From a virus, in IMG/VR virus record IMGVR_UViG_3300045988_059494, positions 7,219-71,218 of that record: DNA of 64,000 nt. One strand, 5' to 3'. The position numbers and the translations under genes are program-made. Of this stretch, positions 41,936 to 64,000 are shown piece by piece (within the stretch, counting starts at the first letter, position 1; each line of letters opens with the position of its first letter). The notes under the pieces are model-generated. The model saw nothing but the letters and a program-made list of their open reading frames with translations. It had not been told where the DNA came from and searched no databases.

Positions 41936-41937
41936 AA

Positions 41938-41961: not shown

Positions 41962-41967
41962 ATATCT

Positions 41968-42357: not shown

Positions 42358-42518
42358 TTATATTCTCCTTTATGCAAATAATGTAATATACGCAAATGCA
42401 ACCGCTAAATTGCCAAACAGAAACCCTGCTTGATATGCGGTTGCCGGATCTGCTTGGTCAGCACCAATGGCCCGACCAAGAATAATTACAGCAATCCATA
42501 GGATGAAAGAAATAATCT

Positions 42519-48010: not shown

Positions 48011-48177
48011 GTAAAATGATTGTAATAAACTATTTCATTACAAGTAGGACAAACTGTCAAAAGTCGGCCAGTGCCAACCCCACGGGTAACTTCATTAAAC
48101 CTACAATGAAAAACGCACTTGCACTTTTCGCATTTAACCCGATAACCAATATATCTATGCTTCCTAATAATAACCAT
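47995..48177 (-). CDS. zinc-ribbon protein (60 aa)
   Basis: CEKCKC...CPTCNE. Confidence 0.3.
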   Translation of the reverse strand: MVIIRKHRYIGYRVKCEKCKCVFHCRFNEVTRGVGTGRLLTVCPTCNEIVYYNHFTWRKI

Positions 48178-48503
48178 TATCTAATCTCCCTCCATCCATT
48201 TTTCTCAATGACCACTCTCATATTCTGAACGCCGACAGGATTCATACTATGTATATGAAAGCTATATCCAGTATCTACAATACCTTTAGCTTCTAGCCAA
48301 TCGAGTAACTTGATATAGTCCCCGCCTTTAGATACATAGTCACCAGCATCATGATCAAGGTCAATCAAGATATTGTCATCTGTCATGTTATGTTCATAGT
48401 GCCAAATTGCAGTTTTAGCTGCTTCTACGCTTTTAGCCCAGATATATCCAACTGGAGCTGGTCTTGTATCATCAATCCATAACTTCATGCAATAAGTCTC
48501 CAT
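48177..48503 (-). CDS. hypothetical protein (108 aa)
   Basis: ORF track. Confidence 0.3.
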   Translation of the reverse strand: METYCMKLWIDDTRPAPVGYIWAKSVEAAKTAIWHYEHNMTDDNILIDLDHDAGDYVSKGGDYIKLLDWLEAKGIVDTGYSFHIHSMNPVGVQNMRVVIEKNGWREIR

Positions 48504-49911: not shown

Positions 49912-49926
49912 TATGATTTTACCTCC

Positions 49927-50934: not shown

Positions 50935-51706
50935 GATCTGTAATCCATTCTCTGTTGATAATATAAGTATCTTTTTCCTTTAAGCAAGTTTTAATCTGTT
51001 CTAATGAGACTGGTCTACCATATCCACAAGAGAAATCTTCTTCCATACTAGGGCAAGTCTCTAGATACTTAAAACCAATACGCCTAAACATACTGGGGTG
51101 AACCATAGGGAAACAAATCTTTTGCAGACTAAAGCGTTCATTGAAATTTTTGATATTTACAGTAGGAAAAATTATCTGTCTACCTTTGACAGAAGGAATA
51201 AATCCTATCGAGAGCTTGGTCTGAATTCCAGCAAGTTCAATAAGGTTAATAGCAGATACAAGAGCTGCGCCCGCACTTTCTAGCTCTTCCGCTTCTACCA
51301 TAGCCGCGCCACCAGTGGCATAGATAATAGAAATAGTTTTCTTCTTTCTATTGATTTTCTCTACTGAAATCATAGACTTCGGCAAGCCCATTAGCGCATT
51401 TGGTACATTAGGCACGAAACCTACAACCTGATTAGTTGCAATCGGCTTAGGAATAAGATTATACATCTTACTAACTAACTTTTTGTTCTTTATCAGATTA
51501 CTCTTGATATTCTTAACTGGATCATTATATCCATAAATCAAGAGAGATTCAGCTTCCTCATAAGTATTTGTACCGCTCCAATTCGAGTTACCAGTCGTTT
51601 GAGAACTATGTTCATCTCTCATAAACTTATTGTTTGGTCGTTCTTTAAGCGTGTTCATAAGCTCAAAAATGCTGCTAAATTCTTCTTTATACATATTATA
51701 AGACAC
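50888..51706 (-). CDS. hypothetical protein (272 aa) between the AAA+ and vWA genes
   Basis: ORF track. Confidence 0.3.
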   Translation of the reverse strand: MSYNMYKEEFSSIFELMNTLKERPNNKFMRDEHSSQTTGNSNWSGTNTYEEAESLLIYGYNDPVKNIKSNLIKNKKLVSKMYNLIPKPIATNQVVGFVPNVPNALMGLPKSMISVEKINRKKKTISIIYATGGAAMVEAEELESAGAALVSAINLIELAGIQTKLSIGFIPSVKGRQIIFPTVNIKNFNERFSLQKICFPMVHPSMFRRIGFKYLETCPSMEEDFSCGYGRPVSLEQIKTCLKEKDTYIINREWITDHGNNIEEILKYMEVC

Positions 51707-51738
51707 TCTTATAAACTTCCTTTCCTATTTCCTTATGT

Positions 51739-51775
51739 ATATATTATATAATAATTATTTATTATTTTCAAATAG
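51739..51775 (-). promoter_or_regulatory. conserved promoter block
   Basis: Coding strand AATAATTATTATATAATATATACATAAGGAA. Confidence 0.45.
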
Positions 51776-51780
51776 AAAAG

Positions 51781-51816
51781 AAAAAACGAGGAAATATTTC
51801 TATTTCCTCGTTTATA
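51781..51816. terminator. hairpin terminator
   Basis: ACGAGGAAATAtttcTATTTCCTCGT. Confidence 0.55.
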
Positions 51817-53391
51817 TTAGTGAATCTGCGCGTAGCGCTCACTGTCCAGCTTCTCAAGAACAAGAGCAAGTCCGTCCTTGCCGCTCAGAATCTGCTGGAT
51901 CATAACAGGGCTGAAACCACTTACGTAGCTAAAGCCGTCCCCAATCGCGGGAATGTTGTTATTACGCGCGTTCAGGTTCCAAAAGACACAACTCGGCATC
52001 TTGTAGCCACACCGCGCCCACTTAGCCTTCATGTCTTCAAACAGAGTGTTGATCCGCTGCATTTCCATGCCACGACCCCAGCCGCCAGTAACATGGTTAC
52101 TCGTTACACAGCGATCAAATTCCATATCAGAAAAGATATATACACGCTCAGGCATATCTTCTGCACGAACAGACTGCTTCATAGCGGTCGCAAGCAGCAT
52201 ATCGAAAACAGCTTCGATATTAGTATTCGCACCCCAATCCGCACTCACGCAGCGGCACAGCTTATCCGTAATGTCTGCACCCTCGAACTTTACCAGCTTC
52301 GGAGAGCCAGAAAAAGTAATGAAGTGGTTAGCAAACGGACCGTGCGCCTTATCTGCAATGTATGCGCCCATAGAAACAGCCGCTTCCATAGGAACACCAG
52401 ACATAGAGCCAGAAACATCGACAACTGCGATGCCGTTCTCTACATTGTCGCCATAGAAATTGGGCAGATTATCCCAATACTTCTGGAGCATTAGACGCTC
52501 AGAGTCTTCCAGACTCTTACGGCGAGAGCTGAAGGCACGATGAGCAATGTCATGCGGATACAGCGCACCAGCGTTAACGGTAGTTTCAGTATCCTTAGCA
52601 AAAGCCTCATACTTTGCCTTAATCATATCGCGACGCGCAAATGCGTTACGATAGATAATACCTGCACGAGAAGGAATTTTATCAAACTCAATCTCGTCCC
52701 AACGGTTTTCAGACATAAGGCGTTCGACAATGCGGATGCGCTCGCGCAGTACAGACAAGGTCTTGCGGTACTCCTTCGGAGTCATATGGAAATGATTACG
52801 AGAGATCGTCGCCAGACGACGCGACTCCTTAGAAGAAGTGTTCTCAGACTTCAGCCACTTAGCAAGAAGCGACGGAGTTTTACAAGAAACATCGAGCGCA
52901 AGCTGATGTCTCATAATCTTGAAAGCCTCATCTTCCAGAGGAGTGTCGACAAAGACGTAGAAATCATCCCAACGACCATACTCGGGCACGAACTTCAGGT
53001 TACGGCGCATTGCTGCGGTTTCATTGAAGGCAAGCCAACGAGAAACCACGCGGAAGAAACGACGTTCTCCCTGTCCACCACGCACATCGCGCAGATAAAA
53101 CAGACACTTCAGTGCATGAGCCTCGTCCTCATCAAAAGCAGCCTTGAACAGAGTGATGCAATCTGCATCGGTGCGCTGACGATAAGCGCCTCCAAGCGCA
53201 AAAAGATCCATAAGTCCATTTAGCGTAGACTTATGAGTAATAGCGCCATTCTCAGTCAGAGTGAAGTTAGTGTCCTGCTTCATAGCGTTCATAAAAGTAT
53301 TCATTGTATCAATCTCCTTTTGATTTTTAGTCGCTCCCTTGGACAAGGGAGATAGTTTATTGATAATGTTCTTCTGCGTGACAATTTGCAC
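51817..53391 (-). CDS. CobT-like protein with C-terminal vWA domain (MIDAS DVSGSMSG)
   Basis: vWA motif AVVDVSGSMSG; 524 aa; partner of the MoxR-like ATPase. Confidence 0.5.
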   Translation of the reverse strand: MQIVTQKNIINKLSPLSKGATKNQKEIDTMNTFMNAMKQDTNFTLTENGAITHKSTLNGLMDLFALGGAYRQRTDADCITLFKAAFDEDEAHALKCLFYLRDVRGGQGERRFFRVVSRWLAFNETAAMRRNLKFVPEYGRWDDFYVFVDTPLEDEAFKIMRHQLALDVSCKTPSLLAKWLKSENTSSKESRRLATISRNHFHMTPKEYRKTLSVLRERIRIVERLMSENRWDEIEFDKIPSRAGIIYRNAFARRDMIKAKYEAFAKDTETTVNAGALYPHDIAHRAFSSRRKSLEDSERLMLQKYWDNLPNFYGDNVENGIAVVDVSGSMSGVPMEAAVSMGAYIADKAHGPFANHFITFSGSPKLVKFEGADITDKLCRCVSADWGANTNIEAVFDMLLATAMKQSVRAEDMPERVYIFSDMEFDRCVTSNHVTGGWGRGMEMQRINTLFEDMKAKWARCGYKMPSCVFWNLNARNNNIPAIGDGFSYVSGFSPVMIQQILSGKDGLALVLEKLDSERYAQIH

Positions 53392-53896
53392 ATAGTAATA
53401 AACATTTATCTACTTCTTCATAAAGTTTATCTATATTGTCGAGTGTTACTCCAATTTCGGCTATACCGAAATCTTTTTGGGTTGGGTCAAGATGGTGAAA
53501 TTGTAAAGCTCCTTCGCATTTATCATAACCACAACGCTCACATTTTCCGCCTTTATAAAGAATTAGCTAGTGTTTGATGGCTTTTTGACGAGCCTTACCG
53601 CTATCTTGGCTTGGAGAGCAATCATAACAATAAATGCGATTATTGACTTTTGTTTTATATTTCTTCCCACAAATCGGGCATATCTTCTCAATCTCTTCTT
53701 GAGCAATATTGGGATTAGTACATTTACCACACGACTAAGTGGGCCTGCTACTTGTTAAACTTGAACCTCTAATTTCCTTTTCAGTTCCACAGTCACATCT
53801 GCATTTCCAATAGGTCTTACCATTGCGGTTTGGCGCTCTTTCAATAACGACTAACTTACCAAAACGCATACCAGTTAAATCTCTTAAATTTGGCAT
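53357..53896 (-). CDS. HNH homing endonuclease with 2 in-frame TAG codons (paralog of 10549..11088)
   Basis: SD GGGAGG; CERCGYDKCEGALQFHHLDPTQKDF...LLCANCHAEEH; the TAG in KAIKH-TAG-LILYKGGKCERCGY aligns with the TAG in SKIK-TAG-QRGGQCVRCGY of the paralog. Confidence 0.65.
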
Positions 53897-53979
53897 TTTA
53901 ATTCCTCCCTTACTATATATAAGAGAAGACCTTAATAGACAAACGGATTTTGTCCAATGTTAGTTTATCTTTTTGTCTA

Positions 53980-54055
53980 TGGAGCAAACGGCTGGATTCG
54001 AACCAGCGATCACGGGGTTGCAGCCCGCTGTCTTAATCCACTTGACTACGTTCGC
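53980..54055 (-). tRNA. tRNA-Cys(GCA)
   Basis: Hand-folded cloverleaf: acceptor GCGAACG/CGTTTGC, anticodon loop CUGCAAC, T-loop GGTTCGAATCC, U73, encoded CCA. Confidence 0.7.
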
Positions 54056-54075
54056 ATAAGAGCGGCAAAAGCCGC

Positions 54076-54327
54076 TTAATCGGTCATTAAGACTACATTG
54101 GAAATATGTGTAAGATATGTTACATCATCAATCTTGATTTGAATAGTGTCACCATCGTCAAAGTCTTTCCAAGACTGAACTGTGCCATCAACTACTGTGC
54201 CATCTGGCATCGAGATAATTGCTCTATTAAAATAGAAATTAGTATCTAAAATCTGACGGTTTCCGCATCCAGTTAAGCAGAATGCTAAACCCGCAGCTGC
54301 AACCAGCGCCACAATCTTCTTTTTCAT
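54076..54327 (-). CDS. small lipoprotein
   Basis: MKKKIVALVAAAGLAFCLTGCGN signal peptide with lipobox; the track ORF extension overlapping tRNA-Leu is spurious. Confidence 0.5.
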   Translation of the reverse strand: MKKKIVALVAAAGLAFCLTGCGNRQILDTNFYFNRAIISMPDGTVVDGTVQSWKDFDDGDTIQIKIDDVTYLTHISNVVLMTD

Positions 54328-54354
54328 TGTTTTATAACCCTTTCTGTAAGTTAA

Positions 54355-54436
54355 TGGTAGGCGAGGAGGGACTCGAACCCTCACGCATAAGCAGCAGATT
54401 TTGAGTCTGCCGTGTCTACCATTCCACCACTCGCCC
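54355..54436 (-). tRNA. tRNA-Leu(CAA), type II
   Basis: Acceptor GGGCGAG/CTCGCCT (G1-U72), anticodon loop CUCAAAA, long variable arm, A73, CCA. Confidence 0.65.
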
Positions 54437-54560
54437 ATAGGAGAAGAGAATTATCGCAAGAAGAAGCGAACATTATTCTTCTTTTGATAATCCATCTCAG
54501 CCTGATAAACGCCCTTGAAGAAGTGTCTTACCTTATTCAGCATTATTAAATCCCTCACTT

Positions 54561-54596
54561 TCTATAAATATTATATCATAATATTTATTTTATTGC
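54561..54596 (-). promoter_or_regulatory. palindromic promoter variant TATAAATATTATATCATAATATTTAT upstream of the tRNA-Leu/Cys unit
   Basis: Near-perfect 26-bp palindrome containing TGATATAAT on the coding strand; near-identical copies at 61326 and 62419. Confidence 0.5.
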
Positions 54597-54640
54597 AAAT
54601 TTTTCATTTATTGCTTTCATTGTAAATAATCCAGGACTGC

Positions 54641-55093
54641 TTAGCAGCTATCCTTTTCGTCCATCTTCGCCCCGCAGTACCTGCAATAGTAGCTATCACT
54701 ACTCTCTGCGTTTCCGCATTCGCTACAAGTGAGTACGCCATCATCATGGTGAATCCATCTCCCATGCACCACTGGGACGACATCGGCGGTAGGAAGCGCC
54801 TTAATCCTCTCTGCGTACCAACTCGGATAATGCGCTTCCGGCGCTTCGCTGAAGATTGTATTCAGCGCGGCTTCTTTCGTGATGTATTTAGCCATCAACT
54901 GACTTCCGTCCAAATATTCCCGCAGTAGCGGACAGTGCGCCGCCGGGACCGCCGTGCAGAATCCGCCGACCGCAGTACAGTTCCCGTTATCCTTATGCCT
55001 AAAGCGGCAACGCAGGCAATTAACATTTTCCATCACATTTCCTCCTCCATCGGCATCCGTTACAGGCCACATGAACCAGCGTGTAGTTTCCAT
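54641..55093 (-). CDS. Cys-rich hypothetical protein in a locally GC-rich segment
   Basis: 150 aa with CLRCRF, CTAVGGFC, CSECGN, CRYCG clusters; composition differs from the surroundings. Confidence 0.35.
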   Translation of the reverse strand: METTRWFMWPVTDADGGGNVMENVNCLRCRFRHKDNGNCTAVGGFCTAVPAAHCPLLREYLDGSQLMAKYITKEAALNTIFSEAPEAHYPSWYAERIKALPTADVVPVVHGRWIHHDDGVLTCSECGNAESSDSYYCRYCGAKMDEKDSC

Positions 55094-55111
55094 ATTTCTC
55101 GTCTAATTTGT

Positions 55112-55205
55112 TGGCGGAGGGCGAGAGACTCGAACTCTCACGCCGTTGTTCACGGTTACTAGCGGTTTTCAGGACCGCTCCCTTGCCAATTAGGGTTAGC
55201 CCTCC
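55112..55205 (-). tRNA. tRNA-Ser(UGA), type II
   Basis: Acceptor GGAGGGC/GCCCTCC, anticodon loop CCUGAAA, long variable arm, G73, CCA. Confidence 0.65.
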
Positions 55206-55242
55206 GTATAGAGCAGTTTTATATCCTGCTCAGGATAGCAGC

Positions 55243-55575
55243 TTATGTAGTTTCAAGGAACTCTTGTTCAGCTTCCATAACTTCACGCAGTTCATGCGCA
55301 GCCTTATTCTCATAATCAGCCATATCAGAATAATGAGCAACCGCATCATCATAAATGCGTCTAGCCTCAAGTTTCTTCGCCGTTGCGCGCTTCATACGCT
55401 TGCGGGCAATCTTTTCCGCACACCGCAGAGCAGCAATCTGCTTACCCTTCTCCAGTGAAAACTCGTCATCTGCATGGCATACTGCAACGCCTCGCACTAC
55501 TCTGCCTGCGTAGGTGGAAACCGCAATTACACGAGAACCATTGGTATAAAACTTGTACTTCTCAATCGGATACAT
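55243..55575 (-). CDS. hypothetical protein; paralog of the N-terminal domain of 30593..31102
   Basis: ORF track; shared motif. Confidence 0.3.
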   Translation of the reverse strand: MYPIEKYKFYTNGSRVIAVSTYAGRVVRGVAVCHADDEFSLEKGKQIAALRCAEKIARKRMKRATAKKLEARRIYDDAVAHYSDMADYENKAAHELREVMEAEQEFLETT

Positions 55576-55726
55576 AACTTGTAACTCCTTTTCTCATTTA
55601 CTATATATATTATATAATAAAATTTCATATATGTCAAAGATCATCTAAGCTAGCTTAGTATCGACCCTTATCATATTTCCTTTTGTTTATATACATATAA
55701 TACAATAATTTTTGAGAAAAATAAAA

Positions 55727-55758
55727 AATAGGATAAAGCCTAATGGCTTTATCCTATT
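55727..55758. terminator. hairpin terminator
   Basis: AATAGGATAAAGCCtaatGGCTTTATCCTATT. Confidence 0.55.
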
Positions 55759-56213
55759 AAATCAGAGAAATTGCCCCAAGCAACAGATGCAGTAGGAGAA
55801 CCCCACGATCCATCACCTTTAAGGTACTTATCAGTATCTCCTGCTTGAGGTGCTGGTACTAAACCTCTCGTGCCCGCGGCCGTAGAGGAAGCCCCAGTCA
55901 TAGTATCTACATTGTTTTGAACTACTGTCCAGTCACTTGCTTTATAGCTAGAGCTATAATCACTGATACATATAATCATATCACCTATTTCAAGTTTGCC
56001 CAAAGAAGCAATCTCGAAAGAAGCATTAGCTTTATATGTCCAACCAATTTTGTAGTTCTTTAGACCAGTAAGATCGGCAGCACTAGAGACGACACCTTTA
56101 AAGACTAGAGAAGAAGAAACCGCGGTTTGCAATGCATTGACCGCGGCTCTTGCTTCTTCATCTTTAAGGGAGTAAATGGTACTGCCGAGTTTAATTTTGG
56201 AAATATCCGCCAT
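55749..56213 (-). CDS. tail-fibre-like protein (short)
   Basis: N-terminal ADISKIKLGSTIYSLKDEEARAAVNALQ motif shared with the 56266 gene. Confidence 0.4.
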   Translation of the reverse strand: MADISKIKLGSTIYSLKDEEARAAVNALQTAVSSSLVFKGVVSSAADLTGLKNYKIGWTYKANASFEIASLGKLEIGDMIICISDYSSSYKASDWTVVQNNVDTMTGASSTAAGTRGLVPAPQAGDTDKYLKGDGSWGSPTASVAWGNFSDLIG

Positions 56214-56265
56214 TTACTCACCATCCTTTATTTTCATAAACGAGTTTTAGCTCGCTAGTGCTAAA

Positions 56266-57486
56266 TTACTTAACAGTAACTTCCTTAGAGGTAACTACTA
56301 CGTCGTCAACATCAAGTTCAACAGCACCGCCGGTAAACTTGGTCTTGTCAGTATCTACGCCAGCCTTATCGTAAGATACGCCGGTAACAACCTGAGTCTT
56401 AGTGCCTGCGAAAGTAGCATTAACATCGACTTCATTACCAGCAAAGGTAGCTGCAAATTTATCGCCAGTAAATACTGGAGCTGTAGCAGTAGCGCTAGTA
56501 ATACCAGTTACAACATCGGTTGCAGTTTCAGCGAGTTCTGGAAGAGCACCTGCATCAAATGCACCTTCTGTGTAAGAAGCCTTTGCACCCTGAACGAAAG
56601 TAGGAAGTGCGTTCGCAGTAAAGCTAAAACTTAAAGTCTCAGTGGTATCATCAACGTTAGCGCTCCAAGTAGCCTGAGAACCTTGAGTAAAAGTATCATC
56701 GCCGTTGGTAACAAAAGTATCCTTAGCCTTAGACGGCAGAGAACCAACAGAAGTTACCTTTTTAATGCTATCCTTAGCTGGGGTTACGGTTACGTTTGGT
56801 GCAGACACAGAACCGGAAATTTGAACACCGTTTTCAGCATCCTTAGCAATACTAACAGTACCAGCAGCAGTTGTAGTACCGGTTACAGTACCTGCTGGAG
56901 TATAATCACTCTTGGTTAGAGTAGCATCAGTTGCGGTCTGAGTAAGACCAACCTCAATAGAACCTGCGGCATTACCCTTAGCCTTCAGACCGATAATAAT
57001 CTGGCCAGCTACGGTACCAGTAGCGGAATCCTTCTTAGATAGAGCACCAAGACCCATATCCGCAGCAAGGGTATCAAGGTTAATATTAGCAGACAGATTC
57101 TGAGTACCAATGGTAACAGTCTTTAAAGCATAAATGCTCTCATCGCCAAGCTCATGCCATGTAGCCGGCTCACCGCCATATACATACTCCTTAACACCAA
57201 TGATGATTACATCACCAGCAACCGGATTGGTAATGTCAGCAAAAGCACTAACAACACCACGGAAGTGCATAGAACCTGCAATACCGGCAATAGCGGCCTG
57301 AACCTGAGCGCCAGTTACAAGACCTTGCTCCTTAGCACTAACGCCAGCCGCAACGTCCTTCTTAGCAGCATTACCAAGAGTAGCAAGAAGCTCACGAGCC
57401 TCAGCATCCTTTAGATAATAAGTCTGATCTCCAATAGTTAGTTTGGAAACAACAGGAACATTCTTAGGATCAAAAATAGCAGCCAT
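56266..57486 (-). CDS. tail fibre / structural protein (Gly-Ala-Thr-Val rich)
   Basis: 406 aa, low-complexity beta-rich composition; N-terminal KLTIGDQTYYLKDAEARELLATL motif; SD AGGAGG. Confidence 0.5.
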   Translation of the reverse strand: MAAIFDPKNVPVVSKLTIGDQTYYLKDAEARELLATLGNAAKKDVAAGVSAKEQGLVTGAQVQAAIAGIAGSMHFRGVVSAFADITNPVAGDVIIIGVKEYVYGGEPATWHELGDESIYALKTVTIGTQNLSANINLDTLAADMGLGALSKKDSATGTVAGQIIIGLKAKGNAAGSIEVGLTQTATDATLTKSDYTPAGTVTGTTTAAGTVSIAKDAENGVQISGSVSAPNVTVTPAKDSIKKVTSVGSLPSKAKDTFVTNGDDTFTQGSQATWSANVDDTTETLSFSFTANALPTFVQGAKASYTEGAFDAGALPELAETATDVVTGITSATATAPVFTGDKFAATFAGNEVDVNATFAGTKTQVVTGVSYDKAGVDTDKTKFTGGAVELDVDDVVVTSKEVTVK

Positions 57487-57508
57487 AAATTAATTTCCTC
57501 CTATAAGA

Positions 57509-58021
57509 TTATTTGAAGATAGCTGTTTCATCTTCTAAATTAACTGTAGCGCCAACTTTGGCGTTCAGTACATCTGTAATCGCTTTTTGCGTCATGGTAC
57601 CATCGGTATTTTCTCCACTGCCAGAGTAAAGTTTCATAACACCTGCGGTTTCCGCGGACGCTACGGGAAGCGAACCCGGTCCAATACCAACAAACTCAAC
57701 ACCATTATAATAATATAAAGCATTTGAATTATTGGCATCAATATAAATTTTATTTTCATTAGGAGTGATTTCTTGAGTGCCATCAACATCTTTGAAAATC
57801 TTTTCACCAATGAAATAAGCGCGTTGGAAGATAGTATTCTCATACTCAAGACTTCCATAAGTTGACACGCCATCGCCAACAATCACGCAAAGGCCTTGCT
57901 TAGCAGTATCTACTAAACAAATTTCGCCCTTTTCGGGAATAAAACTATCCTTTACCTTCTCGTAATTGTAATCATTATCACGGCGCATCTTTAAGACAAT
58001 CTAAATTGTTTTAACAGCCAT
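57509..58021 (-). CDS. fibre-like structural protein with in-frame TAG at codon 7
   Basis: SD AGGAGGTTAAGGCATATG; MAVKTI-TAG-IVLKMRRDNDYNYEKVKD...; track ORF 57509..57988 is the post-TAG part. Confidence 0.45.
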
Positions 58022-58026
58022 ATGCC

Positions 58027-58242
58027 TTAACCTCCTATTGTTATAGGAGCGCCGCCGGCGTCCAAAATGATTGTATCAGTATCCTCAATCGCGGGAGAAG
58101 TGATCTATACTCGAGTACTGTTATCAGTATCCAAGAAAATCAGACGATTACCCTCATCTGTCGTGAAAATCAACTAGCCCTCTTTAATCGGGATGCTATC
58201 GAGATTGGCAAAAGAACCTTTAAGAACTACTAAATCAGCCAT
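58027..58242 (-). CDS. fibre-motif minigene with 2 in-frame TAG codons
   Basis: SD GAGGAGGGATTTATAAGAATG; MADLVVLKGSFANLDSIPIKEG-TAG-LIFTTDEGNRLIFLDTDNSTRV-TAG-ITSPAIEDTDTIILDAGGAPITIGG. Confidence 0.4.
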
Positions 58243-58374
58243 TCTTATAAATCCCTCCTCTCACATAGATATAAAAATTGTAGCAAGTCATTTTCCCATA
58301 TTTGGCCCGAAAAATTCTAAAGCCACTTTGCATTTGCACCGAGCGCGGTCCGATGCCCACATATATGCAACAAA

Positions 58375-58403
58375 AAACCCTGTCATTATATAATAATGAC
58401 AGG
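58375..58403. terminator. hairpin terminator
   Basis: ACCCTGTCATTATataATAATGACAGGGT. Confidence 0.55.
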
Positions 58404-58415
58404 GTTTATATTTAC

Positions 58416-59528
58416 TTACACACCAAACTTGTTAATCATCAAGTCGTTTACCTTAGTAAGTGTGAGAGAAAGAACGGAGGTGGAATTGAGCCACTGTTTC
58501 TTAGCAATCTCTGCATCGTCGTCTGGCAGCTCATCAAAAGCATCCCACGGCAACGATAATGCGACCTTATCAGGATCAACACAAAGCACGCCATTCTCAG
58601 CAACGACATCCTTCACATCGAATTTAACGTGGTAGCAGAACTCTTTATTGTAAAATTCACAATATACCCATCCCGCAGAATACAGGTTAACTCTGTAACT
58701 ATATTTGGTATTAGTCCAACCATTAGAAAGTCTAACGGTAATATCATAAGCGACATCACGCTCATAATTGATATTCAGATCCATGAGAGTTTCCTCGAGA
58801 GGGTATCCCTGCTTAAGATCAAAAGCAATAGCCCGCAAACAGTCGAAAGTGATATTCGACATCTGAGACAGCTTAATAATCTTATCAATCTCGTCGTCCC
58901 AGCCAGTGCCGAGCTTATCAGTCATGTAAGCACGAATTTCCTCAGGTGCAGGACAAGTAATCTCGAAATGATAATGGAAACGACCAGGTCTATTAACAAG
59001 AAACTCATTGAGGTCACGCGGATCGTTGCAGGTGATAACGAACAATTTCTTGCCATTATCAATACCGTCAAATAGACTAAGCATTTCTATCTGCGGATCA
59101 CCGTCATCTGTCTTGCGGAAAGTCTTTTCGAACTCGTCGAAAATGATTGTTACCTCTTGCTGAATAGAGCTAAGAAAATTGCTGATACCGGGCACAGCCG
59201 CATCAACAATAATAACAGGCATATCATTTTCAATAGATTTGCTAGCAATCATTCGAGCGAGCAAAGACTTACCAATACCCTTCTTACCAGAAAGAATAAC
59301 ACCAAAGTTTCTTTCGCTAATCTGAAACGATTTAAGGATTTTATCTGCCTTGCGGGCATGGTCGCCATAAATCGTGCCCTCATTGATTACAAGGTCATCA
59401 TGCTTGGTAAGCCAAAAACCCATCTGCGGATGGAAACCGACTGTGTAGGTTGCAGCAGGTAATTCTTTGTATGTCTGAACATCTTCGCCATATACCTGAT
59501 AGCGAGAACCTGCATTTACAATATTCAT
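58416..59528 (-). CDS. AAA-family ATPase
   Basis: Walker A GKKGIGKS, Walker B IIFDEFE; 370 aa. Confidence 0.55.
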   Translation of the reverse strand: MNIVNAGSRYQVYGEDVQTYKELPAATYTVGFHPQMGFWLTKHDDLVINEGTIYGDHARKADKILKSFQISERNFGVILSGKKGIGKSLLARMIASKSIENDMPVIIVDAAVPGISNFLSSIQQEVTIIFDEFEKTFRKTDDGDPQIEMLSLFDGIDNGKKLFVITCNDPRDLNEFLVNRPGRFHYHFEITCPAPEEIRAYMTDKLGTGWDDEIDKIIKLSQMSNITFDCLRAIAFDLKQGYPLEETLMDLNINYERDVAYDITVRLSNGWTNTKYSYRVNLYSAGWVYCEFYNKEFCYHVKFDVKDVVAENGVLCVDPDKVALSLPWDAFDELPDDDAEIAKKQWLNSTSVLSLTLTKVNDLMINKFGV

Positions 59529-59552
59529 ACTCTACTTCCTTTCAAATGTATA

Positions 59553-59626
59553 TGGTGCGGGGCCGCGGATTCGAACCGCTTTTTCAGCCTTTTAACGCTG
59601 ATGGTCTACTTATAGCCTAGCCCCGC
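59553..59626 (-). tRNA. atypical tRNA-like gene with an apparent 8-nt anticodon loop (GUUAAAAG); anticodon unresolved (UAA, AAA or quadruplet)
   Basis: Acceptor GCGGGGC/GCCCCGC, T-loop GGTTCGAATCC, A73, CCA; anticodon stem UCAGC/GCUGA encloses 8 nt; weak D-stem. Confidence 0.4.
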
Positions 59627-59629
59627 GTA

Positions 59630-59706
59630 TGGTGGTTCTTCAGAGGCTCGAACTCTGGATCGTCCCGTTATGAGCGGGATGCTGTGACCAACTCAGCTAA
59701 AGAACC
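59630..59706 (-). tRNA. tRNA-Met(CAU) (or Ile-lysidine type)
   Basis: Acceptor GGTTCTT/AAGAACC, D-stem GCTG/CAGC, anticodon loop CUCAUAA, CCA. Confidence 0.65.
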
Positions 59707-59752
59707 ATATGACGGCATTAAAGCCGCCAGGAGTCCGTAAAGAAGGAGAAAA

Positions 59753-59826
59753 TGGCACCGGTTGGTAGAATTGAACTACCGTCAGAGGAGTCAGAATCCT
59801 CTGTACTACCATTATACTAAACCGGT
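59753..59826 (-). tRNA. tRNA-Gln(CUG)
   Basis: Acceptor ACCGGTT/AACCGGT, anticodon stem GAGGA/TCCTC with loop UUCUGAC, T-arm GGTAG/CTACC, G73, CCA. Confidence 0.6.
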
Positions 59827-59830
59827 AAAT

Positions 59831-59916
59831 TGGTGCCGCCAGCGGGACTCGAACCCGCACGGTTCTACACCGGGGGATTTTAAGTCCCCTGTGTCTACCA
59901 GTTCCACCATGGCGGC
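59831..59916 (-). tRNA. tRNA-Leu(UAA), type II
   Basis: Acceptor GCCGCCA/TGGCGGC, anticodon loop CUUAAAA, long variable arm, A73, CCA. Confidence 0.65.
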
Positions 59917-59924
59917 ATACTTTC

Positions 59925-60278
59925 TTATTCATAACCTACTGCATCATACATTGGAGCATAACTTTTCACATGACGATGAGTAATAACTCCAATACAAGTT
60001 TCTTTGTCATCTACTTCTTTAATGTAAATAGAAGCCTGATCACTTGTGATTGCGGCACGACCTCGTGGATTTGTTACACGCTTCGCGCACTCTTCGACGT
60101 GCTTCATATCAATAGTATTGATCTCAATACGCTTGTTTCTACCAATGATTACAAAAATAGGTTTATTATTTACTAACAAAGGCTTTGTATCAATGATCCG
60201 TCCGCACCATCTAATTGAATATTCTTCGTGAACATCTGTAACAATCAGATGGGTCTTAATCATAACATCTTCTGTCAT
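59925..60278 (-). CDS. hypothetical protein (117 aa)
   Basis: ORF track. Confidence 0.3.
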   Translation of the reverse strand: MTEDVMIKTHLIVTDVHEEYSIRWCGRIIDTKPLLVNNKPIFVIIGRNKRIEINTIDMKHVEECAKRVTNPRGRAAITSDQASIYIKEVDDKETCIGVITHRHVKSYAPMYDAVGYE

Positions 60279-60538
60279 GCTTTTAACCTCGCAAAGAAAG
60301 CTAATACATCATCATCTGCTTGAACTTCTACAATATCCTCTGAACGAGGTGCTGGAGTTGATTGATGGAATGGGTGTTGCTCCTTCCAACAATCTAAGAA
60401 ATGTTTCTTGATGTAGCTCTCCGAACTGAAAGCCTTATGACAAGTTGGACAAATATACATATCTCTCTTCCTCTTAACAAATATCATCCATTGTTGGGTC
60501 ACTAATTTCAATACCTGCGAAGATTTCGCAATCATCAT
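60275..60538 (-). CDS. small C2H2/C2HC-like zinc-finger protein
   Basis: YICPTCHKAFSSESYIKKHFLDCWKEQH. Confidence 0.35.
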   Translation of the reverse strand: MMIAKSSQVLKLVTQQWMIFVKRKRDMYICPTCHKAFSSESYIKKHFLDCWKEQHPFHQSTPAPRSEDIVEVQADDDVLAFFARLKA

Positions 60539-60918
60539 AGGTCATATTCCGCATAAACTCAATCTCGATTGCTTCTCGCTCGAGAGTTTCAATATCCTCT
60601 TGATATTCATAAATCATGTTCATGATATTGTGAATAGCGCCAAACACTTCATCGAAATTATCCACGGTAATGTTAATTCCTTTTGCAATCTCGATTTGTT
60701 GCTGTAGACGAGCAATCTCTTTATGAGCAGAAGTCTTGCTTTCCCGCAATTTGCTTGCTATTGATTCAAGCTGTTCTTGACTAAATCTCCTAATCTTTTC
60801 ATAAGGAGCTTCTGCAATATCATAAACATGAGTATTACGAGAGTAATTTGCGAGAGGAATAAAATCCTCATTGTGACGAACAAAGAAGTTAAGATATTGT
60901 GACATATACATTCTCCTC
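60474..60918 (-). CDS. hypothetical protein
   Basis: Probable start MYMSQYLNFF with SD AGAGGAG; the upstream part of track ORF 60474..61115 overlaps tRNA genes and is spurious. Confidence 0.35.
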
Positions 60919-60927
60919 TCTTTCGTG

Positions 60928-61042
60928 TGGTTGGAAGCACAGGATTCGAACCTGTATCTCGCGTCCCATACGATAAAATTGCTGTTACAGCCTATTACTA
61001 GGCTAAATCTTACGCGCGTGCTGTCTCTTACACTAACTTCCA
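60928..61042 (-). tRNA. tRNA-like gene with ~40-nt insertion in the anticodon-loop region (possible intron-containing tRNA or pseudo-tRNA)
   Basis: Canonical T-arm ACAGGTTCGAATCCTGT, acceptor TGGAAGT/GCTTCCA, A73, CCA, D-arm GTG..CAC. The putative anticodon stem CGCGT/ACGCG encloses 47 nt that include a hairpin AGCCTAgtaaTAGGCT. Confidence 0.3.
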
Positions 61043-61044
61043 AA

Positions 61045-61120
61045 TGGCTGGGATGGTGAGACTCGAACTCACGAATTCCGGGGTCAAAGCCCGTTGCCTT
61101 ACCGCTTGGCGACACCCCAA
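61045..61120 (-). tRNA. tRNA-Gln(UUG)
   Basis: Acceptor TGGGGTG/CATCCCA (one G-U), D-stem GCC/GGC, anticodon loop CUUUGAC, G73, CCA. Confidence 0.55.
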
Positions 61121-61322
61121 TATTTACAAGACGCTAACGGGCATAACCAATTCCTTTTCGTCCTTTTGTCGGTTCCCCATATGCTCACTGTCCAAAAGAA
61201 CTAGGTTTCTTAAGACCGTGGTCTTAAAACCATAAATATCTCTTATATTTATTCAAATTAGTAGCACAAAAGTTTGCTGATATAGCGTCTTAATCCACGA
61301 TTTGTGGTTGACCTTGCCGGCC

Positions 61323-61360
61323 TATATAAATATTATATCATAATATTTATTATTTTTCAA
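61323..61360 (-). promoter_or_regulatory. palindromic promoter variant upstream of the tRNA unit
   Basis: cctatataaatattatatcataatatttattattttt; near-identical to the 54561 and 62419 copies. Confidence 0.5.
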
Positions 61361-61599
61361 ATCAAGACCCACGGAAACTCAAGCTAATTACTCCATATCT
61401 CCCACTTGTTTCCGTCTTAAAGAGATATATCATAGTCTGGAGGTAATACACTTACCAATAAACATTCTTGTATTCAAGTAAATAGAAGAATTTGCTGTAT
61501 GGGTCTTTTCCATAACATAGGAAAGGAGTGATACATAACCCCATTTAATGGGGAAGTGGCCGTAACTATAAGGGATAACCTTATCTAAGCTCTGGCAAG

Positions 61600-62223
61600 T
61601 TACGAGGTTTCACCGTATTTCCATTTGTATCCATAAGCAGTTTTTCGTTTGCCATTGCATACAGCAGCTATATGCCCTGAATGTTGTTTGCCCAAACGAT
61701 CATAAGCAGCTTTAATTGAAGGGAAAATATTCAAAATTTGATTGGTATTTTTATCTATCTGTATAACAGGCTTAATAATACCTAAACGACTTTTAATACT
61801 TCGCTCTTCTTTGGAAATACCATATTGATTTAACACCTTTGAACAAGTGTCCGTAGAATAATTCAAAATTTTTGCAACTTCTTTAATATTTAATCCTTCT
61901 TTATATAAAGAATATATTAAATCATAGTCACAATATCTCTTTCCATCGCCGCCAAGGGTTGCATTATATCCATTCTTGAAAGAACGTTTTTGTTCAATCC
62001 AATAAACTTCTCGTTCTTCTGGATTATCCGTTTCTTCAATTAGCTCAATATGGAAATGTTCAACCCCATATTTCCGCATAGCAGAATATAATGGACGCTT
62101 TTCGTTACGCTCTTTGAAAGCATCTCGACAATGTTCCTTAAAGCGTTTCTCGATAGAGAATTCAGTTTTACCGACATAAATTTTACCATTTATGTCATTA
62201 GTGATCTAATAGATGTATGCCAT
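61600..62223 (-). CDS. GIY-YIG homing endonuclease with in-frame TAG at codon 6
   Basis: SD AAAGGAG; MAYIY-TAG-ITNDINGKIYVGKTEFSIEKRFKEHCRDA...RKYGVEHFHIELIEE...YWIEQKRSFKNGYNATLGG; track ORF 61600..62079 is the post-TAG part from an internal Met. Confidence 0.65.
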
Positions 62224-62306
62224 AACTAAATGACTCCTTTCTTTTTATTTTGATATAATTAGCATTACCCGTCTTTTACCGCGTGGAGGTTTATATCACA
62301 AAAGAC

Positions 62307-62378
62307 TCGGAGTGACAGGATTCGAACCTGCGACCTCGATACCCCAAATATCGCCGTCTACCGCTGACTTACACCCCG
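62307..62378 (-). tRNA. tRNA-Pro(UGG), CCA not encoded
   Basis: Acceptor CGGGGTG/CACTCCG (one G-U), anticodon stem CGATA/TATCG with loop UUUGGGG, T-loop GGTTCGAATCC. Confidence 0.55.
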
Positions 62379-62418
62379 TTATAAAGACACATATTGTAAT
62401 ATGTGTCTTTCCTTATCT

Positions 62419-62450
62419 TGTATAAATATTATATCATAATATTTATACAA
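62419..62450 (-). promoter_or_regulatory. palindromic promoter variant upstream of tRNA-Pro
   Basis: tataaatattatatcataatatttatacaaaat. Confidence 0.5.
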
Positions 62451-62452
62451 AA

Positions 62453-63313
62453 TCAAATTGTTGTAACAAAAGCATTATATCCCTTGTTAGCTAGATCATG
62501 AACTACTCTTGCTGCGTTAGTCTTCACAGAAAACGCACCAACTTGTACCTTCCAATAGCTACCAACCTTGCGGACATAAGCGTTTTTATATCCTGCATTG
62601 ATTGTGTCTGGAAGAGCTTTAATCTTAGCCAAAAATGCGTTTGCATTAGCTTTCTTGCTAAATGCGCCAAGCTATACTCTATAAATAACTTTTGGCTTTA
62701 AATAAACAGCCATTACATTATCAACAGGACGATTAGTAAATGCTTTTGTGATACACTTACCATCGTGTAATACCTTGGTACTTCCACCTCCATCAAGGTT
62801 AATAGCATAATCAACCTTGAGAGTCTGCAAGAAAGATTGCATTTGCGAGAAGTTCATACCTGGAGATTCAATAGCTACAATAAAGATATTCTCTTTATTA
62901 TAAGCTAAAATAGTTCTTCTAGCTTTGTAGTTAATCTCAGAAGCAATAGTAATAGGAACTGCGGCGCCGGCCTTAATCAAAACTGGATAGCCACTTACGA
63001 AGTCTTCAAACTTCTCTTGACCAATTACACCGTATCTTAGCTCTCCATTTATAGTTCCAAATCCTTCTCTGTAAGAAGAATTAGAGCTAATGATTTTTCC
63101 TTCATCAGAATAATTCAAGATAGTTGAACCATTGCTCATGTTAAAGAAACCACCATTTGAAATAATAGAAGGCTTAACAGCGCAGCTATCATAATAGGCT
63201 TTCAAAGTCTAACGAGGCTATTGACATAATGCCATATCAAACTTTGAAATCTCTGTCTTAGGGATTTCTACAACAGTGATATAAGAATAGTTAGTTGGAT
63301 TATAAATCTTCAT
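62453..63313 (-). CDS. cell-wall-associated protein: phosphodiester-glycosidase-like (NAGPA, NLDGGGST) domain plus C-terminal SPOR domain; 3 in-frame TAG codons
   Basis: SD AAGGTGA; MKIYNPTNYSY...ALCQ-TAG-PR-TAG-TLKAYYDSC... (track ORF 62672..63205), then ...VIYRV-TAG-LGAFSKKANANAFLAKIKALPDTINAGYKNAYVRKVGSYWKVQVGAFSVKTNAARVVHDLANKGYNAFVTTI-TGA (SPOR). Confidence 0.5.
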
Positions 63314-63375
63314 TTTATCACCTTCCTTAATATTTATAAAAGAGAAGATAATTAAATTAAAGAAATATCCCCAAA

Positions 63376-63451
63376 TGGTAGTCCAGATAAGACTTGAACT
63401 TATGCCCTTTCGATTATCAATCGAACGCTCTACCGACTGAGCTACTGGACT
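63376..63451 (-). tRNA. tRNA-Ile(GAU)
   Basis: Acceptor AGTCCAG/CTGGACT, D-arm GCTCAGTCGGTAGAGC, anticodon loop UUGAUAA, A73, CCA. Confidence 0.7.
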
Positions 63452-63454
63452 ATA

Positions 63455-63542
63455 TGGCGCGGAGGGAGAGATTCGAACTCTCGGACCCTCGCGGGTCACT
63501 AGTTTTCTAGACTAGCGCCTTAAACCGCTCGGCCACCTCCAC
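63455..63542 (-). tRNA. type II Ser-like tRNA (G73, long variable arm) with unusual anticodon loop CUAGAAA (formal anticodon AGA)
   Basis: Acceptor GTGGAGG/CCTCCGC (one U-G), anticodon stem CTAGT/ACTAG; same architecture as tRNA-Ser(GGA) but with A at position 34. Confidence 0.45.
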
Positions 63543-63619
63543 TTATTATCAAGACTCTATTATAGTCTAATTAACGGTTAGATGCTCAATAAGCTAAAGA
63601 ATTGCTGTTAGAGTCTTAA

Positions 63620-63696
63620 TGGTATGCTATATTGGACTCGAACCAATGACCCTCGGTTTAGAAGACCGATGCTCTGTCCAACTGAGCTAATAGCAC
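63620..63696 (-). tRNA. tRNA-Arg(UCU)
   Basis: Acceptor GTGCTAT/ATAGCAT, D-arm GCTCAGTTGGACAGAGC, anticodon loop CUUCUAA, CCA. Confidence 0.65.
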
Positions 63697-63960
63697 TTAT
63701 TTCATTCGATATTTAAGCCAATCTCTGTAGGCTTCTTCTCTCGTAGGTGTTGGTTCATCTTTCCAGAACCAATAGCTTTTACGTTCTTTCCATCTATTAA
63801 CAGAGATATGATAGAACTGTTCAAAAGAACTTGGAACAAGAGAGCAATAATCACAAATATCCCACTGACAAGTATATTTCTTGTAAGCAGAATTCGATAA
63901 GTCGAGGTTAATGTTTCTATTAAGCGCCCGCCGCACTTTACGATTAGCAATCTTCTTCAT
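63697..63960 (-). CDS. hypothetical protein (87 aa)
   Basis: ORF track. Confidence 0.3.
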   Translation of the reverse strand: MKKIANRKVRRALNRNINLDLSNSAYKKYTCQWDICDYCSLVPSSFEQFYHISVNRWKERKSYWFWKDEPTPTREEAYRDWLKYRMK

Positions 63961-64000
63961 GCCACGGTTATGATCCTTCCAAACCGGTTGTTTCCGATAT

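Follow-up and report, generated by a model that had tools for sequence, protein, structure and literature searches.

A tRNA-like gene split by a conserved RNA module, and its linkage to a predicted Ro60-like protein, in a phage of gut Bacillota

Y RNAs that mimic tRNA flank the Ro60 genes of bacteria and phages (PMC4201824), and Ro60 and its Y RNA often lie within RtcB repair operons (PMC7790460). Other departures from ordinary tRNA biology have been described in phages: gut phages in which TAG is read as Gln (code 15; PMC10607447), Lak megaphages with tRNA introns reported as enigmatic (PMC6784885), and theta ribozymes that abut CCA-less phage tRNAs in genomes rich in DRB0094 ligases (PMC10879173). 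Here we analysed 64,000 nucleotides of viral DNA (positions 7,219 to 71,218 of the IMG/VR record IMGVR_UViG_3300045988_059494; the whole stretch is called the window). Its tRNA array holds three genes of atypical form: a tRNA with an 8-nt anticodon loop (59553..59626), a serine tRNA with the loop CUAGAAA (63455..63542) and a tRNA-shaped gene whose anticodon arm is split by a 40-nt insert (60928..61042). The last of these is best read, from its sequence and from the modelled structure of a protein encoded in the same window, as a new tRNA-mimicking, Y-RNA-like partner or substrate of that protein, which resembles Ro60.

The window comes from a ~145-kb phage of gut Bacillota that is distantly Herelleviridae-like. 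Megablast found no match to the region among 50,697 phage records, and the nearest cultured relatives, the Herelleviridae, are detectable at the protein level only, at ~40% identity. All window genes lie on the minus strand. We found close relatives through the exact 117-aa product of 59925..60278, which led to six contigs of 65-145 kb, five of them of 141-145 kb (L numbers here denote phage and bacterial loci used for comparison). One contig, L052 (ena:ERZ27261405:k119_87904, 144,639 bp), is 99.986% identical to window positions 49925..64000 and extends past the window end. Each of the three atypical genes recurs in related phage genomes, and they are therefore neither chance arrangements nor sequencing artefacts. 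We consider it probable, with moderate confidence, that four statements hold jointly: UAG is read by a suppressor tRNA encoded past the edge of the window, the 8-nt-loop tRNA is specific to one clade, the serine tRNA is a normal tRNA-Ser(AGA), and the third gene is a tRNA mimic linked to a Ro60-like protein.

A sequence-only reading of the window had placed canonical acceptor, D and T arms at 60928..61042, with about 40 extra nucleotides where the anticodon loop should be. We ran ARAGORN over the whole window, and its intron option returned exactly this gene (score 106.8), with an insert of 40 nt. The acceptor, D and T arms, A73 and CCA are all normal, and 47 nt separate the anticodon-stem halves CGCGU and ACGCG. 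In the predicted fold of the insert, AAGAUU pairs with AAUUUU beneath the hairpin UAGCCUA-GUAA-UAGGCUG, and UAACAGC is bulged. Rfam, even at E <= 10, matched a T-arm fragment of this gene only and gave no family for the insert. In relatives, tRNA-Gln(UUG) is followed by a gene built in the same way, for which ARAGORN gives a different anticodon label each time.

Alignment of the relatives showed that the conserved element is the insert, a module made of a 6-7-bp hairpin with a GNNA loop, a 3-4-nt linker, CAGCA(A) and a U-rich tail. The same module splits Tyr, Leu, Asn, Ile, Phe and Pro tRNAs that are clean in every other respect, and its site is always the 5′ strand of the anticodon stem. Among 28 modules, 98.5% of cells are paired and all seven of the seven pairs show double changes, a result equalled by 0 of 500 shuffles. 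A covariance model of the module matches the window gene at 60976..61008 (42.9 bits, E = 8e-8).

The same model gave a weaker match (63599..63642, 22 bits, E = 0.006) at the spacer between tRNA-Arg(UCU) and tRNA-Ser(AGA). This spacer starts with AAGACUC-UAA-CAGCAA and finishes with GAGUCUU-GAUAA, the two halves of a module, and its minimum-free-energy fold pairs the termini, as in Y RNAs, around an anticodon-arm-like hairpin, UCUAA-CCGUUAA-UUAGA. The spacer is conserved in L001 and L052-L057 and, from its sequence features, is a candidate for a second Ro-partner RNA. At this position relatives have a gene for transfer-messenger RNA (tmRNA), which is absent from the window's lineage. It is found in L003-L017 (for example L003 5086..5431 and L016 6708..7023), between tRNA-Arg(UCU) and tRNA-Lys or tRNA-Ser(AGA), and encodes the tag peptide DNNYFDSHMAA or DNDYFENYLAA.

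Modules were also found in bacteria. A scan of one genome per GTDB species with a 17-base pattern returned at least 120 loci; among the matches listed, 64 show it within a gene of tRNA-like form. Most of these come from Lachnospiraceae or other Clostridia, the modules often stand in tandem, and two of the 64 are isolate scaffolds longer than 500 kb. Over all fetched loci, a T-arm motif follows within 100 nt at 158 module sites; a control with reversed sequence gave 0. In the 18 bacterial loci to which Rfam was applied, all its matches were to tRNA. Some module-bearing RNAs lack an anticodon arm altogether (L217 7397..7485, L083 and long-stem elements). We also observed that arrays of Lachnospiraceae (L192 4870..5600, L243 4950..5390 and L217 7160..7490) share the backbone AGGGCUAUAGCUCAG...UAGCCCU under the anticodons CUU, GUU, UCU and GAU, begin with a module-bearing leader RNA and include tRNA-like RNAs without an anticodon arm.

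Clustering of open reading frames around the bacterial modules revealed one dominant protein family, DUF2828 + DUF7788, present in 51 of the 64 loci. Its gene follows 92 of 96 modules on the same strand, with the module 75-2564 nt upstream (both counts among the matches listed), and was found in only 2 of 56 chance-match loci. The bacterial protein shares 38% identity (E = 2e-106) with the product of window gene 51817..53304. The gene and the module go together in phages as well: among phage loci of at least 19 kb, 22 have both, 12 neither, 1 the module only and 6 the gene only, and the distance from the module-bearing tRNA to the DUF2828 gene downstream is 138 nt in L020 and 677 nt in L026. 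RtcB and WYL/WCX regulators are encoded nearby in 12 bacterial loci. The DUF2828/DUF7788 family has more than 8000 homologues at E <= 1e-10, and we found nothing relevant on DUF2828 in the literature.

Sequence comparison does not reach Ro60 from this protein: Pfam gave no TROVE domain, and phmmer and a profile search against PDB sequences returned no Ro60. We therefore rely on an AlphaFold2 model of the 51817..53304 product, built from 50 homologues, with a mean predicted local distance difference test score (pLDDT) of 78; the single-sequence model (pLDDT 37.5) was useless. The top nine PDB matches of the model in Foldseek are all Ro60 (1YVR, 2NVO, 9L5Y, 9NEN and others), from Xenopus, Deinococcus, human and Thermus phage phiLo, over the full length and with E = 3e-7 to 2.5e-4, at template-modelling scores of only 0.37-0.49. 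The matches point to the Ro60 layout, a helical-repeat ring followed by a von Willebrand factor A (vWA) domain with a metal-ion-dependent adhesion site, and the protein contains the sequence DVSGS. The product is thus predicted to adopt the Ro60 fold.

The position of module-bearing genes beside a gene for a predicted Ro60 fold, together with the precedent of Y RNAs, makes Y-RNA-like partners or substrates the simplest reading of these RNAs. Like YrlA/YrlB and Yrn1, the Y RNAs of Ro60/Rsr, they possess a tRNA-like domain (the window gene has the D arm, T arm and acceptor stem of the YrlA domain), are encoded, in the bacterial loci, mostly upstream of a gene for a predicted ring + vWA protein, often in RtcB neighbourhoods, and are also found in phages. 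They differ from Y RNAs in that the latter have a permuted tRNA-like domain on a Ro-binding stem, whereas module-bearing genes are complete cloverleaves with their own acceptor ends and CCA, split by the hairpin-CAGCA element, and most of them have canonical anticodon arms. Unlike the Ro60 of Y RNAs, DUF2828/DUF7788 is not annotated as TROVE and has no sequence link to Ro60.

In the mechanism we propose, the module would be the handle by which the Ro60-like protein holds tRNA mimics, as Ro60 binds Y RNAs, and the resulting ribonucleoprotein (RNP) might, during infection, join the phage's RNA ligase and end-healing enzymes in the quality control and repair of tRNA or other RNA. Judging from their domain matches, the ligase, the cREC protein, the phosphoesterase, the nucleotidyltransferase and the RNase T-like exonuclease of the window (Table 1) may form a toolkit for RNA end healing and sealing. 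The RNA ligase gene adjoins what appears to be a set of NAD salvage genes (36572..43784, minus strand), in which NAD synthase is a Pfam match and the nicotinamide phosphoribosyltransferase-like, PRPP (phosphoribosyl pyrophosphate)-synthetase-like and nicotinamidase-like genes were recognized by eye from translated open reading frames.

Several observations weigh against this reading. The module is unlike known Ro-binding helices: the window gene has neither the GNCGAA motif nor the Ro-binding terminal helix of YrlA, and YrlA (Rfam RF02553) matched neither this gene nor any of the 18 bacterial loci. The two genes of the window, module-bearing and Ro60-like, share a strand but are not adjacent, being 7.5 kb apart. 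The bacterial scan used one stem variant, and its taxon counts, taken among the matches listed, are biased samples. Finally, most module-bearing genes have perfect anticodon arms, as would be expected of real tRNAs that need excision of the module rather than of mere scaffolds.

The last point leads to the strongest alternative, that the module is a new, short, protein-dependent tRNA intron. An endonuclease would cut the 5′ strand of the anticodon stem, RtcB or the DRB0094-type ligase would join the exons with the help of end healing, and the Ro60-like protein would assist as cofactor or chaperone. We regard this as a real, if somewhat unlikely, possibility; it partly overlaps with the Y-RNA-like reading, and the two are not mutually exclusive. 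When the insert is excised in silico, 100 of 136 unique module-bearing genes become canonical tRNAs of at least 15 specificities, with scores up to 128, although some of the deletion-scan calls in bacterial loci are visibly mis-spliced. The site of insertion is fixed (after nt 28-31), the length mostly falls within 38-46 nt, and canonical loops such as CUGUUAA, CUGAUAA, CUGUAAA and CUUAAAA lie beside the module. The presence of RtcB, of the tRNA-splicing ligase family, near bacterial loci, and of an RNA ligase, a protein with a cyclic-phosphate-processing domain and a phosphoesterase in the phage, also fits splicing, and the Lak megaphage introns provide a precedent.

Other observations do not favour an intron. 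We found no candidate endonuclease, and the 1324 tRNAs of the fetched loci include no intron-less orthologue that would fix the splice sites. Deletion and rescoring of all segments of the window gene gave at best a tRNA with the anticodon AUG (score 114.3), which would be a poor tRNA: it has G32 and, in AUG, A34; for His it lacks G-1 and C73, and for Gln it has A73 rather than G73. The exons of the window gene are otherwise Gln-like (U1-A72, G2-C71, G3-C70, G10, U35, G36 and a D stem identical to that of the suppressor tRNA described below); A73 and G37 are unlike Gln. Excision in relatives gives CUA, UGG, AGG, UUG or UAG. Syntenic products thus differ in anticodon, and decoding is not conserved at this locus. 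Moreover, RNAs entirely without an anticodon arm also bear the module. The labels given by ARAGORN, His(AUG), Pro(AGG) and Pyl(CUA), were rejected as identities, as they shift with the arbitrary intron boundary; standard tRNA finders overlook module-bearing genes or mislabel them with arbitrary anticodons, including a false 'Pyl/CUA'.

The module also appears to differ from the intron classes considered here. It shares with the archaeal and eukaryal bulge-helix-bulge introns, the bacterial group I introns and the Lak introns the interruption of the anticodon arm, the canonical tRNA restored by removal and a nearby gene for an RtcB-type ligase. Unlike them, it measures 38-46 nt, enters the 5′ strand of the stem after nt 28-31 rather than position 37/38, and brings its own hairpin and CAGCA; the Lak introns are ~93 nt long and lie 3′ of the anticodon (PMC6784885 supplement). 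With 40 nt in the 5′ strand of the stem and no match to an Rfam intron family, the window insert is too short for a group I intron; inspection of 60928..61042 showed no evident bulge-helix-bulge, for which the site would be non-canonical, and the Pfam-scanned proteins include no tRNA_int_endo match or other splicing endonuclease. Two further ideas were tried and rejected. We found neither core motifs nor Rfam matches of a self-cleaving ribozyme (hammerhead, twister, pistol or hepatitis delta virus (HDV)) in the module, and, by inspection, no consistent pairing by which CAGCAA could serve as an internal guide to exons or splice sites. Literature on phage tRNA introns and on tRNA introns in Lachnospiraceae yielded nothing relevant; no search was made on the module itself.

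A bolder combination of the two readings, which we regard as speculative and doubtful, is that Clostridia and their phages share a widespread and unrecognised RNP system. The Ro60-like protein would keep module-split tRNAs of at least 15 specificities inert, and protein-catalysed excision followed by RtcB or DRB0094 ligation would release them, for example when anticodon nucleases deplete the tRNA pool. The tRNAs held in reserve would include Lys, Asn, Asp, Tyr and Ile and, judging by in-silico products, some readers of stop codons (CUA, UCA, UUA); products with UCA and UUA anticodons were seen in other loci. If true, this would be a mechanism of protein-dependent tRNA splicing or of reserve tRNAs in bacteria, and the CUA product in relatives could gate a switch of the phage to a code in which TAG is sense.

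An 8-nt anticodon loop had likewise been claimed for the gene at 59553..59626. This is borne out by the ARAGORN structure, whose loop, GUUAAAAG, lies at 59589..59596; the Rfam tRNA model scores the gene at 31.3 bits against a threshold of 29. The whole reads GCGGGGC-UA-GGCU-AUAAGUA-GACC-A-UCAGC-GUUAAAAG-GCUGA-AAAA-GCGG-UUCGAAU-CCGC-G-GCCCCGC-A-CCA, with a T stem of only 4 bp, and its body is of class I despite the Leu-type anticodon. Its place is constant, 3 nt behind tRNA-Met and immediately ahead of an nSTAND3/AAA ATPase gene. About 12 distinct sequences of it are known to us, all from one phage clade: a search of IMG/VR with the 16-nt anticodon-arm pattern found only the same clade and chance matches in coding sequence, and an exact search there with the 3′ end of this tRNA found no match. 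Between phages whose ATPases are 72% identical, ~3-5 of its 74 positions differ, fewer than in neighbouring tRNAs, and they include a compensatory double change at 7-66 from C-G to U-A; the discriminator base is A or G across relatives.

8-nt anticodon loops alter decoding. One relative has the loop GUUAGAAG, in which UAA has become UAG, both being Leu anticodons. This variant fits an arrangement in which U33 makes the turn, 34-36 are UAA and the extra base is on the 3′ side, as in SufB2-type suppressors. Either anticodon would pair with Leu codons, and the tRNA cannot pair with UAG. With its 8-nt loop in a tRNA-like cloverleaf the gene resembles the +1 frameshift suppressors sufD, sufJ and SufB2, each with one extra loop nucleotide, which in SufB2 too lies 3′ of a standard triplet; unlike these laboratory mutants, it is a natural, conserved phage gene with a Leu-type anticodon on a class I body. 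A scan of the window for pairs of open reading frames that would need a +1 shift at UUUA (TTTA) gave only ordinary gene junctions. By analogy, the tRNA could be frameshift-prone, nuclease-resistant or non-decoding. Two other unusual loops were observed in the related phages: an atypical tRNA just past the window end whose anticodon loop has 6 nt ('tt') and which lacks CCA (L052 5497..5571; also in L001 and L053-L057), and, in other relatives, an 8-nt-loop variant ('tgtt') where siblings have tRNA-Asn(GUU).

It is very unlikely that the 8-nt-loop tRNA and the module-bearing gene are functionless pseudogenes decaying in a fast-evolving array. Their scores with standard models are low (31.3 bits, and no match for the module-bearing gene), the short T stem and the A/G discriminator of the former could reflect decay, and the anticodon region of the latter drifts among relatives. 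The few changes and the compensatory 7-66 pair described above argue against decay of the 8-nt-loop tRNA; the module-bearing gene has preserved its stems within the lineage by wobble and compensatory changes, and the module is under strong structural constraint in both phages and bacteria.

The gene at 63455..63542 had been described as a serine-type class II tRNA with the loop CUAGAAA, A34 and a CUA displaced by two positions. We agree on all counts: the loop (63504..63510) is C32-U33-A34-G35-A36-A37-A38, so that the anticodon is A34-G35-A36 and the displaced 'CUA' is C32-U33-A34 of a normal AGA loop. The gene has the long variable arm, 3-bp D stem with long D loop, G73 and 7-nt loop with U33 of a class II tRNA-Ser. 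In 57 related phage loci we counted 25 Ser(AGA) genes and 1 Ser(GGA) gene; CUAGAAA is invariant in the 25, while their acceptor, D, variable and T arms diverge with compensatory changes. As UCU is the dominant UCN codon of the window genes (419 of 650, 64%), a serine tRNA with A34 pairs exactly with the favoured Ser codon. Its sequence and those of its orthologues suggest that this is the normal UCN-box serine tRNA of the phage group, with A34 replacing the bacterial G34, and that it is unrelated to UAG.

tRNAs with A34 are nearly absent from bacteria save Arg-ACG, yet unmodified A34 is tolerated in four-codon boxes (bioRxiv 10.64898/2026.05.15.725136). The phage tRNA has its anticodon AGA and its four-codon box in common with eukaryotic tRNA-Ser(AGA/IGA) and with the rare bacterial tRNA_ANN beyond Arg(ACG), and differs from them in being a gene of a bacterial phage that has replaced Ser(GGA) almost completely, 25 to 1. 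Other A34 tRNAs of the group are Cys ACA, Leu AAG, Ile AAU, Thr AGU and Pro AGG. Ser(AGA) is thus unusual for a bacterial system, ordinary in its phage group and of a known kind; A34 serine tRNAs are the norm there and not an annotation error. A Pfam scan, which covered only part of 36-64 kb, gave no deaminase match among the window proteins. tRNA-Cys(ACA) lies between tRNA-Ile and tRNA-Pro in L003-L012 (for example L003 7391..7464) and could also read UGA if its A34 were deaminated.

The interest of these genes for decoding stems from the use of TAG in this phage. Genes of 100 codons or more were called with TAA and TGA as sole stops. All 62 such genes end in TAA or TGA, and 17 of them contain 45 in-frame TAGs, with a maximum of 13 TAGs in 303 codons (gene 20188..21099). 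Most of the carriers encode homing endonucleases (GIY-YIG and HNH), a small membrane protein, a NAGPA+SPOR endolysin (62453..63313) or other late-type products. Public assemblies contain gene calls that read across the TAGs, with Pfam domains on both sides of them (NAGPA+SPOR, GIY-YIG). The TAG sites of the endolysin are CAG or CAA in orthologues from relatives, the window residue opposite the TAGs of relatives is Gln at ~7 times the background, and the aligned in-frame stop codons are almost only TAG, not TGA or TAA. These comparisons indicate that TAG is a sense codon, most likely for Gln (code 15). Two points count against the assignment to Gln, namely the modest number of sites on which it is based and the occurrence of Lys and Glu codons, too, opposite TAG.

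The window lacks a tRNA for this codon, as the earlier reading had stated. Neither ARAGORN nor Rfam found the anticodon CUA at 34-36 of a 7-nt loop in any of the 13 tRNA genes of the window, and a relaxed ARAGORN run (90% threshold, introns up to 300 nt) added only low-scoring, overlapping calls and no CUA tRNA. The expectation that the suppressor would be encoded outside the window proved correct: L052 has a canonical tRNA(CUA) gene that lies 2.44-2.53 kb past window position 64000, and the gene is present in all five other near-identical sibling contigs. The same reading expected a Gln or Ser tRNA; the body is Gln-like (U1, G73, D arm GGUGUAAUGGUUAGCAC) with a 20-nt variable arm, and the orthologous codons point to Gln, although G73 and the long variable arm make charging by seryl-tRNA synthetase (SerRS) formally possible. 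UAG is thus probably read, as far as gene content tells, by this ordinary CUA tRNA beyond the right edge, and none of the atypical genes appears to be the suppressor. As in the TAG-recoded gut phages (code 15; phAss-1, crAss-like, Lak), the phage has its own tRNA(CUA), with Gln the likely amino acid, and in-frame TAGs in lysis, late and mobile genes; what distinguishes it is the 20-nt variable arm on the Gln-like body and the location of the gene beyond the window.

The fallback that one of the atypical genes reads UAG non-canonically, be it the 8-nt-loop tRNA, Ser(AGA) through its CUA at 32-34 or the module-bearing gene after alternative processing, can hardly be credited: altered decoding is known for 8-nt loops, and in relatives with 72-73%-identical ATPase the best excision product has the loop UUCUAGG (anticodon CUA; ARAGORN 124-126), but that product would need an anticodon stem of 6-7 bp or a connector of 2 nt, the window's own insert yields no CUA however it is excised, CUAGAAA is the invariant loop of a normal serine family, the UAA(A) of the 8-nt loop, or UAG(A) in one relative, pairs with Leu codons, and with a canonical CUA tRNA in the same genome such a reader is unneeded and finds no support in the phage.

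The rest of the array is ordinary. ARAGORN with default settings finds 12 tRNA genes in the window, all on the minus strand, to which the intron option adds the module-bearing gene as the 13th; the Rfam tRNA model supports 11. The ten ordinary tRNAs of the sequence-only reading were all recovered as listed there, and its three atypical genes were returned at the coordinates it gave once the intron option was used. L052 carries 13 further tRNA genes past the window end, so that the array comprises at least 26. For tRNA-Ser(UGA), here and in relatives, the best Rfam model is tRNA-Sec, below threshold at 36 bits. A promoter-like sequence, ATAAATATTATGATATAATATTTATA, with an extended -10 element, TGATATAAT, occurs in near-identical form at 54570..54600, 61320..61355 and 62415..62450 (minus strand), upstream of tRNA clusters. 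Coordinates are collected in Table 1.

Table 1. Features of the window and the suppressor tRNA gene of L052, with the evidence for each.
Feature	Position	Strand	Evidence and remarks
Phosphoesterase	36572..37480	-	Pfam Metallophos, PHROGs
RNA ligase, DRB0094-like	42519..43784	-	Pfam RNA_ligase; NCBIfam RNA_lig_DRB0094, weak; PHROGs RNA ligase
Nucleotidyltransferase	46674..47492	-	PHROGs
cREC (cyclic-phosphate-processing) protein	48177..48503	-	Pfam cREC_REC
RNase T-like exonuclease	48485..49288	-	Pfam RNase_T
Predicted Ro60-like protein	51817..53304	-	Pfam DUF2828 + DUF7788; PHROG 850 'RNA-binding protein', 3e-123
tRNA-Cys(GCA), canonical	53980..54055	-	ARAGORN, Rfam
tRNA-Leu(CAA), canonical	54355..54436	-	ARAGORN, Rfam
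tRNA-Ser(UGA), 94 nt	55112..55205	-	ARAGORN 107.9
8-nt-loop tRNA, A73, encoded CCA	59553..59626	-	ARAGORN 'tRNA-?(Leu|Phe)(taaa)' 106.1
tRNA-Met(CAU), canonical	59630..59706	-	ARAGORN, Rfam
tRNA-Gln(CUG), canonical	59753..59826	-	ARAGORN, Rfam
tRNA-Leu(UAA), canonical	59831..59916	-	ARAGORN, Rfam
tRNA-shaped gene, anticodon arm split by 40-nt module	60928..61042	-	ARAGORN, intron option only
Inserted module	60972..61011	-	AAGAUU, hairpin UAGCCUA-GUAA-UAGGCUG (60988..61005), UAA, CAGCAA (60979..60984), U-rich tail
tRNA-Gln(UUG), canonical	61045..61119	-	ARAGORN, Rfam; 2 nt upstream of module-bearing gene
GIY-YIG homing endonuclease, one in-frame TAG	61600..62223	-	Pfam on product called in L052
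Minimal HDV-like (theta-type) ribozyme candidate	62236..62306	-	Rfam HDV-F-prausnitzii 25.3 bits vs threshold 44, full-length
tRNA-Pro(UGG), no encoded CCA	62307..62378	-	ARAGORN, Rfam
tRNA-Ile(GAU), canonical	63376..63451	-	ARAGORN, Rfam
tRNA-Ser(AGA), class II	63455..63542	-	ARAGORN 120.8, Rfam tRNA 54 bits
77-nt spacer between tRNA-Arg(UCU) and tRNA-Ser(AGA)	63543..63619	-	Module halves at both ends
tRNA-Arg(UCU), canonical	63620..63696	-	ARAGORN, Rfam
tRNA(CUA), 91 nt, loop CUCUAAA	L052 3749..3839 (= window coordinates 66440..66530)		ARAGORN 120.7, Rfam tRNA 51.4 bits

One of the ordinary tRNAs, tRNA-Pro, is interrupted at its 3′ end. A 745-nt cassette (61563..62307) lies between nt 72 and 73 of this tRNA and parts it from the ancestral G73-CCA; indel mapping showed that the cassette is absent from L053-L057, and in L054-L057 the tRNA reads ...CACUCCG-G-CCA. 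The ribozyme candidate of Table 1 starts at the first base after tRNA-Pro and leads into the GIY-YIG gene. By eye, its helices are P1 (GUCUUUU/AAAAGAC), P2 (UGAUAUAA/UUAUAUCA) and P3 (ACC/GGU), with CUAA before the 3′ strand of P2. The candidate would cut exactly at the new 3′ end of tRNA-Pro and would let a mobile element occupy the tRNA gene without destroying it. As reported for theta ribozymes, it starts right after a CCA-less tRNA, in a TAG-recoded phage with a DRB0094-type ligase (PMC10879173); unlike the reported ones, it is the leading edge of a GIY-YIG cassette, and its Rfam score is below threshold. The text of PMC10879173 makes no mention of 'endonuclease', 'homing' or 'GIY-YIG'. 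A match to the type-P1 twister ribozyme, also below threshold (31.3 bits, E = 0.0014), was observed just outside the window, upstream of tRNA-Ser(GCU) (L052 5103..5160).

As regards recoding, the answer given by this genome is an ordinary one: the phage supplies its own tRNA(CUA), as is the known rule in TAG-recoded phages, and scans limited to a window can miss the suppressor by a couple of kilobases. The module-bearing gene, in contrast, ties the large, uncharacterised DUF2828/DUF7788 family to Ro60, through predicted structure, and to a covarying RNA module within tRNA genes. It thereby offers a concrete candidate RNA partner for what may be a new branch of Ro-Y RNA systems in abundant gut Firmicutes and their phages, and raises the possibility of protein-dependent tRNA splicing in bacteria.

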